32,000 bases of DNA from Microcystis aeruginosa NIES-843 (GCF_000010625.1 NC_010296.1:1920001-1952000), one strand, 5' to 3'. Shown: positions 1-31,866, counted from the first letter of the stretch. Notes: generated from the sequence alone by a model not told the origin. Translations and numbers: made by a program.

Positions 1-435
1 TTCGTTCCCTATAACCATTGGTTGAACCCTTAGGATGATACTGTCCACAACAGAGTAACGGGAATGCCTTACTGATAGTGGTATGAGCTATCAGCCCCAA
101 CTCTGTTAACTTTTGTTTCGAGCCTGTCAGCCTTTTGGCTCGTGGGTGTTGACGATGGTTAATTCGTATCTTCGCCCCAGGGCTATCCATAGGTTCTGGC
201 TCAACGGGTTTCTGATTTAGGCTATCAGATACCGCTTTTTTTTCCTCGCTCACTACCTCAGATGTACCAAGTCTAAAGCAGCAGGAAATGCCGTCACTCT
301 AGGCATCTAGAGGACAGGACTAAGGTTATTACTAACCCGCACCTGTAGGGTTATAAAGTTATCAAGGTACTACATTTACCAAGCGGCTAATCCTCTAAAC
401 GTCTTACTGTCTAGTTTCTAGCCAACGAATCGCAC
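1..435 (-). mobile_element. ORF-less group II intron, copy 1 (5' 435 nt only; continues past the left window edge)
   Basis: 1-435 is identical to 807-1241 and, apart from a T8/T10 run, to 1669-2105. On the minus strand the unit starts at 435 with GTGCGATTCG, matching the group II GUGYG 5' consensus. Confidence 0.85.
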
Positions 436-456
436 CACACCCCACACCCTACACCC
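436..456. repeat. Heptamer tract (YACACCC)x3 separating intron copies 1 and 2
   Basis: Plus strand reads cacaccc cacaccc tacaccc. The minus strand reads GGGTGTA GGGTGTG GGGTGTG directly 5' of the GTGCG of copy 1 and directly 3' of the ...CTGTAAC end of copy 2. Confidence 0.95.
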
Positions 457-1241
457 GTTACAGTAGAGCAGGAAGTCGCCTTCCCACCCCCTGCTTCAAA
501 ACCGGACTTACGACTTTCGCCGTATCCGGCTCCTGAGTAACTAGGCTACTGTCATTAGTAGAATAATAATGGGAATTATTATTTCCTTGTCTATTCAACC
601 CTCTTGGCTGTATCCCCACCAGACAAGATTGTTGGTTTTAGGGCGTATATGACCGTTGATTGTTGCTTAGACTTCCTAGTTACCCGTCCTTTGTCAGCAT
701 ATCTTTGATATTACTCAAAGCCTTGGCTTTTAAGGACATCCTCTCCCTCTATTGACTTGCGGATGGTTTCCTACTGCCCCGAACGGGCAGAGTCAATCAG
801 GGTTACTTCGTTCCCTATAACCATTGGTTGAACCCTTAGGATGATACTGTCCACAACAGAGTAACGGGAATGCCTTACTGATAGTGGTATGAGCTATCAG
901 CCCCAACTCTGTTAACTTTTGTTTCGAGCCTGTCAGCCTTTTGGCTCGTGGGTGTTGACGATGGTTAATTCGTATCTTCGCCCCAGGGCTATCCATAGGT
1001 TCTGGCTCAACGGGTTTCTGATTTAGGCTATCAGATACCGCTTTTTTTTCCTCGCTCACTACCTCAGATGTACCAAGTCTAAAGCAGCAGGAAATGCCGT
1101 CACTCTAGGCATCTAGAGGACAGGACTAAGGTTATTACTAACCCGCACCTGTAGGGTTATAAAGTTATCAAGGTACTACATTTACCAAGCGGCTAATCCT
1201 CTAAACGTCTTACTGTCTAGTTTCTAGCCAACGAATCGCAC
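457..1241 (-). mobile_element. ORF-less group II intron, copy 2 (complete, 785 nt)
   Basis: On the minus strand the 5' GTGCG is at 1241-1237 and domain V is at 532-499. Domain VI is a ~15-bp helix (GCAGGGGGUGGGAAG / CUUCCUGCUCU-A-CUGU) with a GCGA loop and a bulged A 8 nt from the 3' end. The 3' end ...CUACUGUAAC lies at 457. The position expected for domain IV holds only a small AU hairpin (562-583), and no RT/maturase ORF is present. Confidence 0.88.
499..532 (-). other. Group II intron domain V (copy 2)
   Basis: Minus strand reads GAGCCGGAU-ACGGC-GAAA-GUCGU-AA-GUCCGGUUU. It has a 9-bp lower helix containing the AGC triad, a 2-nt bulge, a 5-bp upper helix and a GNRA tetraloop. The architecture matches the canonical 34-nt DV. 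Confidence 0.9.
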
Positions 1242-1318
1242 CACACCCCACACCCTACACCCCACACCCTACACCCTACACCCCACACCCCACACCCTAC
1301 ACCCCACACCCTACACCC
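1242..1318. repeat. Heptamer tract (YACACCC)x11 separating intron copies 2 and 3
   Basis: 77 nt parse exactly into 11 heptamers: cacaccc cacaccc tacaccc cacaccc tacaccc tacaccc cacaccc cacaccc tacaccc cacaccc tacaccc. Confidence 0.95.
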
Positions 1319-2105
1319 GTTACAGTAGAGCAGGAAGTCGCCTTCCCACCCCCTGCTTCAAAACCGGACTTACGACTTTCGCCGTATCCGGCTCCTGAGT
1401 AACTAGGCTACTGTCATTAGTAGAATAATAATGGGAATTATTATTTCCTTGTCTATTCAACCCTCTTGGCTGTATCCCCACCAGACAAGATTGTTGGTTT
1501 TAGGGCGTATATGACCGTTGATTGTTGCTTAGACTTCCTAGTTACCCGTCCTTTGTCAGCATATCTTTGATATTACTCAAAGCCTTGGCTTTTAAGGACA
1601 TCCTCTCCCTCTATTGACTTGCGGATGGTTTCCTACTGCCCCGAACGGGCAGAGTCAATCAGGGTTACTTCGTTCCCTATAACCATTGGTTGAACCCTTA
1701 GGATGATACTGTCCACAACAGAGTAACGGGAATGCCTTACTGATAGTGGTATGAGCTATCAGCCCCAACTCTGTTAACTTTTGTTTCGAGCCTGTCAGCC
1801 TTTTGGCTCGTGGGTGTTGACGATGGTTAATTCGTATCTTCGCCCCAGGGCTATCCATAGGTTCTGGCTCAACGGGTTTCTGATTTAGGCTATCAGATAC
1901 CGCTTTTTTTTTTCCTCGCTCACTACCTCAGATGTACCAAGTCTAAAGCAGCAGGAAATGCCGTCACTCTAGGCATCTAGAGGACAGGACTAAGGTTATT
2001 ACTAACCCGCACCTGTAGGGTTATAAAGTTATCAAGGTACTACATTTACCAAGCGGCTAATCCTCTAAACGTCTTACTGTCTAGTTTCTAGCCAACGAAT
2101 CGCAC
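1319..2105 (-). mobile_element. ORF-less group II intron, copy 3 (complete, 787 nt)
   Basis: Same sequence as copy 2 except T10 instead of T8 at about 1904-1913. The 5' GTGCG is at 2105-2101, DV at 1394-1361 and the 3' end at 1319. Confidence 0.88.
1361..1394 (-). other. Group II intron domain V (copy 3)
   Basis: Identical 34-nt DV sequence to 499-532. Confidence 0.9.
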
Positions 2106-2158
2106 CACACCCCACACCCTACACCCAAGAAAAACTTTTTGCCTTTTGCCGCAAACCC
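2106..2158 (+). mobile_element. Right-arm fragment of the ~214-bp MITE family, host of the intron array
   Basis: Three heptamers are followed by aagaaaaactttttgccttttgccgcaaaccc. This matches the heptamer-proximal arm of the copies at 4224-4437 and 31766-31866. It is followed by TAATTA (2159-2164), which fits the TAWNTA flank seen at intact copies. Confidence 0.75.
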
Positions 2159-2161
2159 TAA

Positions 2162-2839
2162 TTAGGGCAGCCATTCCAGTAAAATTCCTAGGGAGCTATC
2201 TTTACGGGCGCGGGAATTTTGGGCTTGAATATCGGCGGCTAAACGTAAATTAGAGGTAATCGCATAACCAACCGAAAGAGTAGTCAATCCCACCTCGTTA
2301 GCACCCCCCGGTGAGATAAAACTCTGACTGACGGTGATATCTGCTGCCCCCGTGCGAGAAAGGGCTAATTTGAGCTTTAATCCTAAGTTAAGCCCATCGG
2401 TGCTGTAATTTCCTGTCTGAATGTAACGATAGCCCACCATGGGAGCCAGATTGACATAATCACCCAAAGGGAGGAGATAGTATTGTAAATTTGCTCCTAT
2501 TGCCGTCCTTTTGCCGTTAAAAGCCGTCTGATAATCGCCGCTTAGGGTTAAACTGGTTTGACCGAAAAACACATCTTCTACCCCCAAAATCACGCCACTG
2601 GAATTATCGGTAGAAGGAAACTCTGCATATCCTAAACGGATACGAGTGCGAAAACTAGGATCGCGGCGAATATCTTCGGCGATATCGGGTATTTTTTCTA
2701 ACCAACGCTCTAAAACTGGGCTTTCTTGCCGAATTTTCGGGTCTAAGTCTAACTCCGTTTCTGCCCACACCGGACCAATCGCCCCCCATAATAAACCAAG
2801 AGCGATCGCATTTACAGAACAGCAAGAGAGCTTAAACAT
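2162..2839 (-). CDS. Hypothetical secreted protein, possibly an outer-membrane beta-barrel
   Basis: ORF track 2162..2857. The start is moved to the ATG at 2839, giving MFKLSCCSVNAIALGLLWGAIGPVWA-ETE, a signal-peptide-like N-terminus. The body has alternating hydrophobic/polar beta-strand-like segments (LGLKLKLALS, LTTLSVGYAITSNLRLAADIQ). No family was recognised. Confidence 0.6.
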   Translation of the reverse strand: MFKLSCCSVNAIALGLLWGAIGPVWAETELDLDPKIRQESPVLERWLEKIPDIAEDIRRDPSFRTRIRLGYAEFPSTDNSSGVILGVEDVFFGQTSLTLSGDYQTAFNGKRTAIGANLQYYLLPLGDYVNLAPMVGYRYIQTGNYSTDGLNLGLKLKLALSRTGAADITVSQSFISPGGANEVGLTTLSVGYAITSNLRLAADIQAQNSRARKDSSLGILLEWLP

Positions 2840-4220: not shown

Positions 4221-4223
4221 ATA

Positions 4224-4437
4224 GGGTTTGCGGCAAAAAGTTTTTCGTGGGGGCAGGGTGTGGGGTGTGGGGTGTGGGGTGTAGGGTTTTACCGATTTTC
4301 ATCTGGTCAATTACCTAATTTTCAGGGAAAAAGTACCTGAATTTTCCCCCCGCTCACTCCCACGGCCGGTACTTTTGGATTGACAAAAAGTCTAAAAGTC
4401 TTATCCAGCAAGGTTTTTAGATTTATTCAGCAAGCCC
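4224..4437 (-). mobile_element. MITE-like element, intact copy A (214 bp)
   Basis: Ends are GGGTTTGCGG... and ...CAAGCCC (imperfect TIR). It is flanked by the direct repeat TAAATA at 4218-4223 and 4438-4443; the left copy contains the hisD TAA stop. The internal heptamer tract lies at 4256-4290, G-rich on the plus strand. Confidence 0.85.
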
Positions 4438-4763
4438 TAAATACAGGGAATAGGAAACGGGGAATAACTTAGATATGTAGGCAAGCTTATTTTTTAAATT
4501 CAGTACAGCTGGTTCTTCGTTACTTGGTATGGTTCGATAGGGGGGCATAAATCGACTAAATCCTTATCTGGCAAGAGACTTAATTGATTAGTTCGCTCTA
4601 GATAAAAAACAATTGACAAAAATCGCTAAATGCCTTTCTATATAAGGGTTCCATCCCTTACAACCCCCCTCTATTGCATAACACAAACCGAAGAGCCATC
4701 CTCCTCCTGTTGCGGAAAAATTAAGAAAGTTAAGGCAACAAAGAAAAGCAGTCAAACAAGTAA

Positions 4764-7925: not shown

Positions 7926-7945
7926 TAAAATATAGTTTCTAACTA

Positions 7946-8159
7946 GGGTCTGCTGAATAAATCTAAAAACCTTGTTGGATAAGACTTTTGGACTTTTTTC
8001 CCCTCAAAAAGTGCCAGCCATTGGAGTGATCGGGGGTAAAATTCAGGTACTTTTTCCCTGAAAATTAGGTAACTGACTACCTCAAAATCGGTAAAACCCT
8101 ACACCCTACACCCTACACCCCACACCCTGCCCCCACCAACAAACTTTTTCAGCAGACCC
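7946..8159 (+). mobile_element. MITE-like element, intact copy B (214 bp)
   Basis: The TIR is GGGTCTGCTGAA at both ends (12/12). It is flanked by TAACTA at 7940-7945 and 8160-8165; the right copy contains the hemW stop codon (CTA at 8163-8165, i.e. TAG on the minus strand). The heptamer tract lies at 8093-8127. Confidence 0.88.
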
Positions 8160-8162
8160 TAA

Positions 8163-15817: not shown

Positions 15818-15849
15818 AAGGGAAGTTAAGTCACCAATCGAACTATCTA

Positions 15850-16062
15850 GGGTTTGCTAAAAAAGTTTTTCCTGGTGGCAGGGTGTGGGGTGTAGGGTGT
15901 GGGGTGTGGGGTTTTACCCATTTTCAGGTGGTCAATTACCTAATTTTCAGGGAAAAAGTCCAGGAATTTTCCCCCCAATCACTCCAAAGGTCGGCACTTT
16001 TTGAGGGAAAAAAAGTCTAAAAACCTTGTTGGACAAGGTTTTTAGATTTATTCAGCAAACCC
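15850..16062 (-). mobile_element. MITE-like element, intact copy C (213 bp)
   Basis: Ends are GGGTTTGCT... and ...GCAAACCC. It is flanked by TATCTA at 15844-15849 and 16063-16068. The heptamer tract lies at 15881-15915. An internal perfect 13-bp hairpin TCTAAAAACCTTG/CAAGGTTTTTAGA lies at about 16015-16045. Confidence 0.88.
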
Positions 16063-16084
16063 TATCTAGCCAATTTATATCTAA

Positions 16085-18626: not shown

Positions 18627-18772
18627 GATCCCCCCTGCCCCCCTTGATAAGGGGGGTGCCGATAGGCGGGGGGATCTACCCTTGATAAGGGGGGTGCCTG
18701 ATCCCCCCTGCCCCCCTTGATAAGGGGGGTGCCGATAGGCGGGGGGATCTACCCTTGATAAGGGGGGTTTCT
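18627..18772. repeat. 2 x 73-bp tandem repeat built from nested G6/C6 palindromes
   Basis: The unit is GATCCCCCCTGCCCCCCTTGATAAGGGGGGTGCCGATAGGCGGGGGGATCTACCCTTGATAAGGGGGGTGCCT. It starts at 18627 and again at 18700. It contains the inner hairpin CCCCCC-TTGATAA-GGGGGG and the outer pairing GATCCCCCC/GGGGGGATC. Confidence 0.9.
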
Positions 18773-18791
18773 GATAATTTTTAACACATAC

Positions 18792-26691: not shown

Positions 26692-28701
26692 TTAAGATAT
26701 GTTTAAATCTCTAATGATGGTTTCGATCGCATCAAAGGAAAATTCTCTGGCTAACTGTTGTAAACCTTGGGCAAGGGTAGCATAATCGGGGGGAATTTCT
26801 GCGGTTAGGGCGATAATTTTTTCATCATCACATTCTCGCGCCGCTTGTTGCAATTGTCTAATCCAGTCGGGACTGATTAATTTTAATAGGGATTGCAGGG
26901 AATCGAGGAAAACTGGCGAATAATTGGGTTGATTTGGCTCATTATCGGCATAAATATATTTTAATCCTAGATATTCGCTCATTTTTTGCCAGATAACTTC
27001 CTCTCGGAAAGGTTTACGCACGAAATCATCACAACCGGCGGCAATAACCAAGGCGCGATCCTCTTCAAAAGCACTGGCAGTTAGGGCAATTATCACCGTT
27101 TTTCCGCGATTATCAGCCTCTAACTGCCGAATTTCCCTAGTTGCTTCGTAACCGTCCTTCACCGGCATTCTCATGTCCATCCAGATAAGATGAGGTTGCC
27201 ATGCTTGCCAAATTGCGATCGCTTCTTGACCATTAGCGGCCTCTTGCACGGATAATCCTAGGGTAGTCAGGAGTTTCAGCAACAGCAAACGGCTTTCCGG
27301 TCGATCATCGACGACTAATATGCGATATTTAGGCTGATTTTCCGCTAAAGCGATAACTTTTGCCCTATTGGTTTCGGTTTTAATCTCATTTTCTCCCACC
27401 AAACCCACCTGAATATCAAAACTAAAAATACTTCCTTGACCCAGAATACTACTAACTCCGATCGCACCTCCCATCAACTCAACAAATTTTTTACTGATAG
27501 GTAAACCCAATCCTGTCCCCTGTTGGGATTTTCGTCCCGTTTCCGTTTGGTTAAAGGGTTGAAATAGCTTATAAATCTCCTCTGGAGCGATTCCTAGTCC
27601 TGTATCTTCAATTTCCCAGAGCAATCGCTGATCATCTTCTCTTTTCTCCCCTAATTTTACCCGGAGAGTCACCCCTCCCGACTCAGTAAACTTCAATCCG
27701 TTACCCAAGAGATTGATTAACACCTGTCGCAATTTACTTTCATCAGTACATATATATTGAGGCAGATCGGAGCTGCGATCAAAAATTAAGCTTAAAGCTT
27801 TTGCCTGCGCTTGTGAGCGTAGCATTTCGGCAATATTATCTAAAAGAGCGTATAAATCGAAATTACTAGGATTAAAAACCGTTCTTCCCGCTTCTATCTT
27901 CGACATTTCTAGAATATCGTTGATTAACTCTAATAAATGTTCTCCGCTACGATTGACAATTTCCAAATATTGCCGATATTCACTGCTGATGCTGCTATCC
28001 CGGGATATTAAGCGAGTAAAACCCAAGATAGCATTAAGAGGAGTGCGTAATTCGTGGCTCATGTTAGCTAGAAACTCACTTTTAGCTTTATTTGCCTTAA
28101 CTGCCGCTTCTTTAGCCTCTTTTAATTCTTTTTCCGCTTCATATCTACTTTCTGCGATCGCAATTAATTCTCCCACCAACCGCACAAAGGTGACATCTTC
28201 CCTTGTCCATTGCTTTTCTGCACTTGCATCCAATCCCAGATAACCCACCGTTACCCCACAACTATCCCACATGGGAACGATTAAGAGACAGGGAGTAGAA
28301 CTATTAGCGAGAATAGCTCTTTCAGGGATAGCAGTAGCGGGTAAATCGTCTAAAGAGTTCAGTTTAACTGGAATACCGTTTAATAATTGTTCAGAAAACC
28401 AAGGAAAGGTTTCCGTTGAGAGATTTTGTGATTGTTCCCGAATCGGGATAACCTGCGGATAGTCGGGGTGACAGTATTCATAAACCATACTCCACTGCTG
28501 ACGACAGGTGGAATATTGAATAATGTAACAGCGCGCACTCTGGGTAAATTGACAGAGCAGTTCTAGGGTATGATCGATCGCCAAGTGGATATCTTGAGAA
28601 ATTAGTAATCTTGTCACCCGTGAGAGCAAATTATCGCGATGGGCCTGCATTTCTAGGGCTTTTTCCCGTTTTTTAGACTCTAGTTCCTCAAAATCACTCA
28701 T
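26692..28701 (-). CDS. Hybrid sensor histidine kinase / response regulator (GAF - HisKA - HATPase - REC)
   Basis: ORF track, 669 aa. It has an N-terminal GAF-like region and the H-box FLANMSHELRTPLNAILGF. ATPase boxes are LINLLGNGLKFT, EDTGLGI and GTGLGL. Receiver motifs are ILVVDD and MDMRMPVKDG. Confidence 0.9.
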   Translation of the reverse strand: MSDFEELESKKREKALEMQAHRDNLLSRVTRLLISQDIHLAIDHTLELLCQFTQSARCYIIQYSTCRQQWSMVYEYCHPDYPQVIPIREQSQNLSTETFPWFSEQLLNGIPVKLNSLDDLPATAIPERAILANSSTPCLLIVPMWDSCGVTVGYLGLDASAEKQWTREDVTFVRLVGELIAIAESRYEAEKELKEAKEAAVKANKAKSEFLANMSHELRTPLNAILGFTRLISRDSSISSEYRQYLEIVNRSGEHLLELINDILEMSKIEAGRTVFNPSNFDLYALLDNIAEMLRSQAQAKALSLIFDRSSDLPQYICTDESKLRQVLINLLGNGLKFTESGGVTLRVKLGEKREDDQRLLWEIEDTGLGIAPEEIYKLFQPFNQTETGRKSQQGTGLGLPISKKFVELMGGAIGVSSILGQGSIFSFDIQVGLVGENEIKTETNRAKVIALAENQPKYRILVVDDRPESRLLLLKLLTTLGLSVQEAANGQEAIAIWQAWQPHLIWMDMRMPVKDGYEATREIRQLEADNRGKTVIIALTASAFEEDRALVIAAGCDDFVRKPFREEVIWQKMSEYLGLKYIYADNEPNQPNYSPVFLDSLQSLLKLISPDWIRQLQQAARECDDEKIIALTAEIPPDYATLAQGLQQLAREFSFDAIETIIRDLNIS

Positions 28702-28702
28702 A

Positions 28703-28854
28703 ATCAGTTATCAGTTATCAGTTATCAGTTAAAAGGGTTTGGGTGTTGGGGTTGTAGGGTTGTAGGGTTTTAGGGTTTTAGGGTTTTAGTTGAATTTCCC
28801 CATCACCCCACTTCCCCACTTCCCCATCACCCCGTCTCCCGTCTCCCGTCTCCC
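28703..28854. repeat. Compound short-tandem-repeat block filling a divergent promoter region
   Basis: It contains (ATCAGTT)x4 at 28703-28730 and G-rich 8-mers (TAGGGTTG x2, TAGGGTTT x3) within 28735-28790. It also contains CCCCATCA/CCCCACTT 8-mers at 28798-28833 and (GTCTCCC)x3 at 28834-28854. Confidence 0.95.
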
Positions 28855-28914
28855 GACTCAAAAAACAGTAAACTTTTCCCCTATTATGTTCTATAGGAAT
28901 TTTACCGAATCAAT

Positions 28915-30430: not shown

Positions 30431-30566
30431 AGCTAATCCTCCCGATGGCTTGTCTTCAAAGTTACAAAGCTTTTATTTGAAGCAGTTTATAATAAAAGTA
30501 ACTCTGTACAAAGCTTATCGGGTTTCAGCTTGGCTATTACTTTATTCTCAAACTTTTAACTAAGTA

Positions 30567-30779
30567 GGGTTTGCTGAATAAATCTAAAAACCTTGTTGGA
30601 TAAGGCTTTTAGACTTTTTTTCCCTGAAAAAGTGCCTACCATTGGAGTGATTGGGGGGAAAATTTAGGGATTTTTTCCCTGAAAATTAGGTAATTGACCA
30701 CCTGAAAATGGGTAAAACCCCACACCCCACACCCCACACCCCACACCCTGCCCCCACGAAAAACTTTTTCAGCAGCCCC
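30567..30779 (+). mobile_element. MITE-like element, intact copy D (213 bp)
   Basis: Ends are GGGTTTGCTGAA... and ...TTCAGCAGCCCC. It is flanked by TAAGTA at 30561-30566 and 30780-30785. The heptamer tract lies at 30714-30748. Confidence 0.88.
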
Positions 30780-30872
30780 TAAGTAGTCGGGCCTAACTTT
30801 TTTCAGTCTGGCGATTATTGGCGTTTCATCCCGACAAATCCCGACAAAATTGCTATCTAGATAGGAGTCCTA

Positions 30873-31765: not shown

Positions 31766-31866
31766 CCTGAAAGTGCCAGCCATTGGAGTGAACGGGGGGA
31801 ATAAAACCCTACACCCCACACCCTACACCCCACACCCCACCAACAAGCTTTTTGCCGCAACACCCA
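31766..31866 (+). mobile_element. MITE-like element, truncated and internally deleted copy E
   Basis: cctgaaagtgccagccattggagtga... matches the interior of copies B and D. A 5-unit heptamer tract follows at 31803-31837, then the arm ccaacaagctttttgccgcaacaccc. It lacks the left end, about 60 internal bp and a recognisable TSD. Confidence 0.65.

Follow-up and report, generated by a model that had tools for sequence, protein, structure and literature searches.

Guide sequences of an ORF-less group IIB intron in Microcystis aeruginosa match the heptamer repeat in which its copies lie

Results

Three intron copies lie within one heptamer tract

A 32,000-nucleotide (nt) stretch of the Microcystis aeruginosa NIES-843 genome (NC_010296.1:1920001-1952000), hereafter the window, contains three copies of a group IIB intron without an open reading frame (ORF), all inside one tract of GGGTGTR heptamers. 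The ribozyme is nearest to the CL1/IIB1 class. The exon-binding sites (EBS) of the intron were compared with the intron-binding sites (IBS) of its exons in the window, in other Microcystis loci and in related introns. The match of these guides to the heptamer explains where the copies are located, by a targeting mechanism that is known rather than new. The array consists of the following features, numbered from the first letter of the window:

1-435, minus strand: 5' part of intron copy 1 (intron nt 1-435; the remainder lies past the window start), delimited by the three-copy alignment; guide positions EBS1 80-85, EBS2 145-149 and EBS2a 151
436-456, minus strand: micro-exon GGGTGTAGGGTGTGGGGTGTG of 21 nt, serving copy 2 as 3' exon and copy 1 as 5' exon
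457-1241, minus strand: intron copy 2, complete, 785 nt, without ORF, with a GUGCG start and an AAC end
457-534, minus strand: domains V-VI of copy 2 (RF00029), with the AGC triad, a GAAA loop and the bulged A in domain VI
1242-1318, minus strand: eleven heptamers (77 nt) separating copies 3 and 2
1319-2105, minus strand: intron copy 3, 787 nt (two extra A), delimited by sequence, Rfam and alignment; guide positions EBS1 1748-1753, EBS2 1813-1817 and EBS2a 1819
2106-2126, minus strand: 5' exon of copy 3, GGGTGTAGGGTGTGGGGTGTG, with A-15 at 2120 and G-14 at 2119

Alignment showed that the three copies were identical to one another except for the length of one poly-A run. Full-length matches (1-77) to Rfam family RF00029 were found at 457-534 and 1319-1396, scoring 55 bits against a gathering score of 40. 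Copy 2 has the ends of a group II intron, with GUGCG at 1241-1237 and ...UAAC at 457, and these boundaries were confirmed by empty alleles. The predicted fold of the intron RNA was far below that of shuffled controls (z = -5.1). Among the Rfam models of domains I to IV there was a single partial match, to RF01999, which remained below threshold (26.7 bits against a gathering score of 36) because of the coverage of Rfam. Assignment to class IIB1/IIB2 is a probable one, drawn from the layout of the EBS2 loop and the proteins of related introns. The 5' exon GGGTGTAGGGTGTGGGGTGTG is common to all three copies, as had been noted earlier from the window alone. The 3' exon GGGTGTA, which had also been attributed to all three, can be read for copies 2 and 3 only, the 3' end of copy 1 lying beyond the window.

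The array is located just downstream of a 231-amino acid (aa) ORF (2162-2857) on the same strand, and read-through transcription of the introns from the side of this gene is plausible. The orthologous place in other strains is the intergenic space between the gene of that ORF and metH. Many Microcystis assemblies encode an identical product of the neighbouring hisD, with gene order kept. Over its last 102-117 nt the intron matches, at 100% identity, at least six contig ends of one Microcystis aeruginosa metagenome-assembled genome, and no intron copy was found in the 'plasmids' collection.

The EBS1 and EBS2 segments pair with the heptamers

Complementarity to the repeat is by itself not beyond chance. 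Sixteen six-mers of the intron can pair with at least one register of the tract when no more than one G.U is allowed, compared with 10.5 ± 4.1 in shuffled sequences (P = 0.115). This abundance of pairing six-mers is what would favour a coincidental resemblance, with the real EBS sites lying elsewhere. The placement of the complementary segments, in contrast, is non-random: no intron six-mer other than CAUACC in the EBS1 loop can pair with the terminal GGTGTG, and GGGTGT has its single perfect match in the EBS2 loop. Since bare complementarity was within chance, a test by structure and comparison was required.

Scanning metagenomes with the intron's first 25 nt returned further Microcystis copies together with introns that diverge downstream. 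Those sharing the first 25 nt while occupying non-heptamer sites were found at loci L126, L131 and L132 and in the short pieces L123 and L127. Genome contigs were scanned with a degenerate domain-V pattern, which was too general, the matches listed including introns from many phyla; among them, a domain I profile picked out relatives in Ktedonobacter (L049, L120) and Hormoscilla (L001, L100, L071). The comparison set comprised seven distinct introns, namely the Microcystis intron and those of L126, L132, L049/L120, L001, L100 and L071. The introns of L131, L132 and L049 encode RT-X-D-En proteins, where RT stands for reverse transcriptase, and the nearest solved structure is that of the T.el4h RT (6ME0 chain C, E = 4e-113). 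The exon of L123 fits EBS1, EBS2 and EBS2a of L131, a match that was left uncounted because the exon of L131 itself is missing. From a MAFFT alignment, RNAalifold gave structure fragments only, and the helices were then checked strand by strand. The guide region of copy 2 comprises:

959-964, minus strand: 5' branch of helix ID(iv), CCAUCG (intron nt 278-283), with its partner at 851-856
957, minus strand: EBS2a, C285, pairing with IBS2a G-14 (seven introns and the rule of PMC8643678)
951-955, minus strand: EBS2, ACACC (nt 287-291), pairing with exon -13 to -9, GGUGU (cognate test and layout of PMC8643678)
925-948, minus strand: small hairpin CGAGCC...GGCUCG (nt 294-317), directly 3' of EBS2, with five compensating sequence pairs among relatives
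886-891, minus strand: EBS1, CAUACC (nt 351-356), pairing with exon -6 to -1, GGUGUG, with one G.U (cognate versus non-cognate test)
878-900, minus strand: EBS1 hairpin (nt 342-364), stem CUGAUAG/CUAUCAG and loop CUCAUACCA

The minus strand from 900 to 878 reads CTGATAG-CTCATACCA-CTATCAG. Its stem is maintained by compensatory changes in seven related introns while the loop varies, and each intron's EBS1 loop pairs with its own 5' exon over 5-7 nt, ending exactly at -1:

Microcystis: loop CAUACC, exon end GGUGUG
L132: loop CAAGCA, exon end UGCUUG
L100: loop UGCUCU, exon end AGAGCA
L071: loop CUGCUA, exon end UAGUAG
L126: loop GCAGU, exon end ACUGU
L049: loop AUCCA, exon end UGGAU
L001: loop AGUGUCU, exon end AGAUGUU

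The cognate pairings summed to 38.0, compared with 18.7 ± 2.2 (maximum 25.5) for mismatched assignments, and none of 1854 derangements reached 38.0. The comparison of sequences thus confirms the predicted identity of the loop CAUACC as EBS1, which was the proposal of the earlier note.

The same note had read EBS2 as ACACCC at 955-950, corresponding to intron nt 287-292 of copy 2. This segment is indeed present there, inside a 9-nt variable stretch between a conserved CAUCGU and the small covarying hairpin, and the structural comparison with six related introns put both EBS1 and EBS2 where they had been predicted. The cognate sum for EBS2 was 33.0 against 21.3 ± 2.2 for mismatched assignments, again with 0 of 1854 reaching it. 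The extent of the pairing had to be revised. In the published IIB1/IIB2 layout (Monachello et al. 2021, PMC8643678), three nucleotides separate helix ID(iv) from a 5-nt EBS2 in a multi-branched ID loop; the middle one, EBS2a, is followed by A and forms a separate Watson-Crick pair with the base 5' of IBS2, usually at -14. This layout fits all seven distinct introns, the Microcystis sequence being divided as CCAUCG, U, C, A and ACACC, and the EBS2a-IBS2a pair is Watson-Crick in each (C-G three times, A-U once, U-A three times). C292 (window 950) could lengthen the EBS2 pairing to 6 base pairs (bp); by the published rule, a 5-bp ACACC/GGUGU helix fits better, with G-14 read separately by C285 rather than by C292. 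Four helices around the EBS sites are kept through compensatory changes in every intron compared. In the IIB1/IIB2 subgroup, EBS3 is located in the coordination loop and pairs with position +1 of the 3' exon. In the Microcystis intron an internal loop (nt 271-277 and 392-394) lies between two covarying helices, and position +1 is G in all eleven 3' exons seen.

A coincidental match is extremely improbable on this evidence: the positions of both segments show covariation with the exon across six related introns, the subdomain helices around both are backed by compensatory changes, the arrangement is that of the published IIB architecture, and CAUACC has no rival as partner of the terminal GGTGTG. 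GGGTGTN GGGTGTG is, as judged from these pairings, the IBS2a-IBS2-IBS1 site, with insertion exactly after the second unit.

Occupied sites follow heptamers and carry A at -15

All ten Microcystis 5' junctions (three in the window, L121, L122, L124 with L129 at the same locus, L125, L128 and L130) follow GGGTGTR GGGTGT(G/A), whereas those relatives whose EBS differ are found at unrelated sites, each fitting the EBS of the intron it holds. With this, the claim of the earlier note passed one of its own checks, by which copies of the intron in unrelated flanks would have spoken against it. The 3' exons are less constrained: all eleven begin with GG and nine of them with GGG, while only some continue as heptamers, the remainder leading into the body of a MITE (miniature inverted-repeat transposable element; GGGTTTTACC...) or into unrelated sequence. 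The 3' exon therefore needs only GG, not a whole heptamer. At L128 the 5' junction (11283) follows GGGTGTA instead of GGGTGTG, so that position -1 and the first EBS1 base form a C-A mismatch; that contig holds only 107 nt of intron, and its own EBS1 is not included. Two of the other copies are interrupted, that of L124 (3296-4590) at nt ~113 by an IS630-like element (TA target, frameshifted DDE gene) and that of L122 (12471-14652) after nt ~140 by an ISL3-like element (end GGCTCTTC, 400-aa transposase).

Unoccupied IBS2-IBS1 14-mers were found in the window at the three places listed earlier (4256-4276 and 15895-15908 on the plus strand, 30721-30748 on the minus strand), with 29 matches against 0 expected. 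Among the 61 GGGTGTN GGGTGTG sites in the Microcystis DNA examined, T-16 together with A-15 was present in 8/8 occupied sites and A-15 in 17/53 empty ones (Fisher p = 0.0004, or 0.002 with the window counted once), a statistic that is indicative only and tempers the rule drawn from it, the sample being small, partly non-independent and taken from loci selected for carrying the intron. L128 also carries A-15. Beyond T-16/A-15 and GG at +1/+2, no base bias was seen at occupied Microcystis sites. Since A-15 is found in all occupied sites, not every register qualifies; the usable ones are indicated to lie two units downstream of one whose last base is A. A full site is present in three of the five empty heptamer tracts in the window and absent from the other two. 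The proposal that every tract is a multi-register homing site thus goes too far.

A-15 is a critical target base in EcI5 and in Th.e.I3/TeI3c-4c, where a contact with RT residue 173 has been proposed, and Glu at this residue goes with G-15 (PMC8643678). The relatives are in line with this relation: L132 combines E173 with G-15 and L049 combines G173, as in T.el4h, with A-15. L131 has E173, and the site of L123, possibly a target of L131, has G-15. A longer EBS2 helix or a bulged pairing was considered as the cause of A-15 and rejected, as the bases that come next on the EBS2 side (A, C) are unable to form consistent pairs with A-15, T-16 and -17.

Insertion is precise and polymorphic between strains

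The orthologous locus is without intron and has an uninterrupted tract in five other Microcystis genomes. Empty alleles of other strains read ...GGGTGTAGGGTGTGGGGTGTG^GGGTGTAGGGTTTTACC, without target duplication, and that of L135 reads ...TTCTT GGGTGTA GGGTGTG GGGTGTG^GGGTGTA GGGTTTTACC. The uninterrupted target at the orthologous locus of L135-L138 makes this a precise insertion polymorphism, and a precise empty site without target duplication is what would be expected of group II insertion. In L133 and L135-L138 the tract lies between a 228-aa gene and metH and is followed by a second heptamer repeat of the CTGATAA/CTGATCA type. Its length ranges from 4 to about 17 units among strains (4, 5, 11 and 17 in four otherwise ~99% identical genomes), and it is thus a hypervariable microsatellite. 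A survey of 142 kb from eight other strains yielded 71 14-mer sites and 24 full sites, with 0 occupied.

The presence or absence of the intron at loci otherwise ~99% identical implies recent insertion. This is difficult to reconcile with the alternative that the copies are immobile relics, in which the match between EBS and flank records past insertions only, as are the divergence of at most 1.3% among copies across strains and metagenomes and the intact catalytic domains. For relics speak the lack of an ORF, a helper RT that was not found by tblastn in the window or the intron-bearing loci, a weakened ID(iv) helix in the window copies, the two copies broken by insertion sequences and the many perfect sites that are empty. 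On balance we regard the relic explanation as unlikely.

The array may have grown by recombination or by repeated homing

The flanks of the three copies are compatible both with repeated, locally biased homing and with duplication of an [intron + spacer] unit. A single insertion could have given rise to the array through slippage or unequal crossing-over between its flanking tracts, with EBS-guided homing responsible for the dispersed copies, and to this origin we give slightly less than even weight. The copies differ only in poly-A length; with 0/24 full sites occupied in the eight other strains, three independent hits in one tract are improbable; the variable tract length at the locus indicates that slippage or recombination occurs there; and the sequences of the 77- and 21-nt spacers can be composed of a prefix of the downstream tract followed by a suffix of the upstream one. 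Against this, the flank of every copy obeys the full target rule (A-15, G-14, IBS2, IBS1, GG), the 21-nt spacer equals one minimal target, which is the prediction of repeated homing, and 21 bp of homology is inefficient for recombination. Long intron-free tracts also exist at the locus (L133, L136), so that the landing pad could predate the introns. The tract at 1242-1318 holds one extra empty full target, GGGTGTA GGGTGTG GGGTGTG^GGGTGTA, with the cut between 1284 and 1283.

A more elaborate scheme combines guides (EBS1, EBS2, EBS2a) tuned to the repeat, an expandable microsatellite as landing pad, GGGTGTA as a phase marker whose RT-read A-15 gates the registers, and in-place growth of the array by locally biased retrohoming, which would couple tract length and intron number. 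We consider this combination doubtful.

The heptamers are carried by a MITE, and the target is the heptamer string

Four complete copies of a 217-218-bp element, plus remnants, were found in the 32 kb. They have inverted ends (GGGTTTGCTGAA.../...TTCAGCAAACCC), are flanked by 6-bp direct repeats with the consensus TANNTA (TAAATA, TAGTTA, TATCTA and TACTTA), and each carries four heptamers near one end. Short, non-coding, multicopy and bounded by terminal inverted repeats and target-site duplications, the carrier is a true MITE. The copies and related tracts in the window are:

2127-2166, minus strand: 5' end of a MITE-derived element, with the duplication-like hexamer TAATTA and the inverted repeat GGGTTTGCGG...
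4222-4439, plus strand: empty MITE copy, full candidate target ending at 4269
7944-8161, minus strand: empty MITE copy, tract without an IBS2-IBS1 14-mer ending in G
15848-16064, plus strand: empty MITE copy, full candidate target ending at 15908, followed by GGGTTTTACC
30565-30781, minus strand: empty MITE copy with three 14-mer registers, one of them with A at -15
31806-31840, minus strand: heptamer tract in a partial or variant element, 14-mer present, G at -15

In other strains the intron-bearing tract runs on into a different repeat of the CTGATAA type, and it is therefore a MITE remnant. MaeMITEa of NIES-843 is 219 bp long and has 240 copies (PMC2779907). The heptamer element resembles it in its 217-218 bp, its abundance and its inverted repeats; the two may be identical, as judged by length and abundance rather than by sequence comparison. 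The genome paper of NIES-843 lists MITEs and no group II introns (PMC2779907).

The earlier suggestion that the intron is specialised on a repeat of another mobile element stands as far as the MITE is concerned, whereas tracts outside it are occupied as well: about 5 of 13 occupied sites lie in the MITE, the others in G-rich tracts or in surroundings with unrelated sequence on one side. The target is accordingly the heptamer string, not the MITE as such. These flanks also bear on the possibility of a single insertion into a MITE followed by passive carriage through MITE transposition, without homing into tracts. The MITE is a real transposable element with target duplications, and several occupied sites do lie in it (the window locus, L125 and the 3' exons of L034, L084 and L110). 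Passive carriage is nevertheless very unlikely, given non-MITE flanks on one or both sides at L121, L122, L124/L129, L128, L074 and L027, a register that differs within MITEs (3' exon GGGTTTTACC, GGGTGTGGGGTTTTACC or GGGTGTGGGGTGTGGGGTTTTACC) and the IBS string as the only feature common to all sites.

Two other repeat structures were observed in the window. Short tandem repeats lie side by side at 28687-28860 (ATCAGTT x4, GGGTTTTA x6, CCCCACTT and CCCGTCT x4), and a 73-nt unit with C6/G6-rich sequence and internal dyad symmetry (GATCCCCCCTGCCCCCCTTGATAAGGGGGGTGCC...) occurs twice at 18627-18775, possibly as another small repeat element.

Discussion

EBS-guided spread of an ORF-less IIB intron into heptamer sites is, taken as a whole, the best explanation of these observations, and we hold it with considerable confidence. 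At the level of sequence comparison, the analysis supports the identity of the IIB ribozyme, the three pairings between RNA and target, a precise and polymorphic insertion and the restriction to sites compatible with pairing. EBS1, EBS2 and EBS2a all read GGGUGUR, EBS1 over -6 to -1, EBS2 over -13 to -9 of the preceding unit and EBS2a at G-14. According to the proposed mechanism, the intron would spread by retrohoming, in which it is spliced in reverse into DNA and then copied by an RT supplied in trans, the source of which may be an ORF-containing intron of the same genome. The RT protein would add the requirement for A at -15, and G at +1 would also be required, presumably as IBS3, which would leave a register usable only two units downstream of GGGTGTA (or another unit in ...TA). 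With heptamer tracts present in a multicopy ~218-bp MITE and in other G-rich tracts, the genome would provide about one full site per 6 kb, of which few are filled.

A trans-RT pathway of this kind has been described for ORF-less Thermosynechococcus introns (PMC8643678), and NIES-843 has seven group II RTs (PMC8934634). Locus L137 (Microcystis genome AP019314; 1-2100, minus strand) has an ORF-containing group II intron whose 5' end, GUGCGAAACG, follows ...AAGTATATG in an AT-rich target. Its protein (gene 1-1403) is a 614-aa RT-X-En, and it is possible but unproven that this RT acts as helper for the intron studied here.

Several points weigh against guided spread. We infer retrohoming, splicing and transcription of this intron alike. 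The search for a helper RT was made by tblastn with a relative's intron-encoded protein and gave none in the window or in the intron-bearing Microcystis loci. As for L137, its ribozyme is clearly different (nhmmer E = 1.6e-13 over part of domain I), and its RT has Ser at the equivalent of T.el4h residue 173. The nearest ORF-containing relatives of the ribozyme, L131 and L132, carry E173, and this residue goes with G-15, not with A-15. Assignment of an EBS3 base was attempted and none was made, with little variation available and the 3' boundaries of the relatives uncertain. In helix ID(iv) of the window copies the inner two pairs are weakened, C.U and G.U replacing C-G and G-C; in the variant at L125 (intron nt ~385-387 and 405-410), CG stands in place of the UU of the window copies and restores both pairs, and the window copies may be slightly impaired relative to it. 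Finally, the ORF-less Hormoscilla introns L100 and L071 have good EBS1 and EBS2a pairs and an EBS2-IBS2 pairing of only 3 bp; they may be ectopic or decaying insertions.

It is well known that bacterial group II introns home into mobile or repeated DNA, as RmInt1 does in ISRm2011-2 and IIC introns do at terminators and integron attC sites. Such introns parasitise multicopy sequence, whereby host genes are spared and many targets gained. Their targets are unique sites in a repeat element or DNA stem-loops read by shape, whereas in Microcystis base pairing alone reads a short tandem repeat, so that each tract offers several sites in phase. The special feature of this case is that every RNA-read position falls on a 7-nt tandem repeat, giving multiple in-phase sites, tandem introns and micro-exons of 21 nt and 77 nt. 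Our literature search found no paper on this intron or on group II introns in heptanucleotide repeats.

By the features compared here, the Microcystis intron groups with Th.e.I3, EcI5 and other IIB1-type introns. Among the closest known systems is the IIB1 family of Thermosynechococcus elongatus (Th.e.I3 = T.el4h, TeI3c/4c and ORF-less relatives of these), also cyanobacterial IIB introns, which has the same EBS2-loop layout with a 5-nt EBS2 and EBS2a two nucleotides upstream of it. This family has A-15 as a critical target base, and its members are mostly ORF-less and mobilised by an RT made elsewhere in the genome (PMC8643678). They occupy various unique sites and other introns, whereas EBS1, EBS2 and EBS2a of the Microcystis intron all read one 7-nt tandem repeat, which puts the target in many registers and loci. 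EcI5 of E. coli pO157 (IIB1, CL1 RT) recognises its target by EBS1, EBS2, an EBS2a-IBS2a pair at -14 and an RT contact with A-15 (PMC8643678), the pattern seen at all occupied Microcystis sites. It differs in encoding its own RT and in needing C-18/C-17 and T+5, whereas the Microcystis intron is ORF-less.

The full IIB target code (EBS1, EBS2, EBS2a and -15) can here be read from occupied versus empty sites in wild genomes, and the EBS2a rule and the A-15 contact appear to hold for an ORF-less intron outside laboratory systems. The intron also accounts for a class of Microcystis assembly breaks and repeat structures that published descriptions of the mobilome do not list as introns. Furthermore, a compact 785-nt ribozyme with a defined target code could seed a Microcystis targetron, once the helper RT is found.

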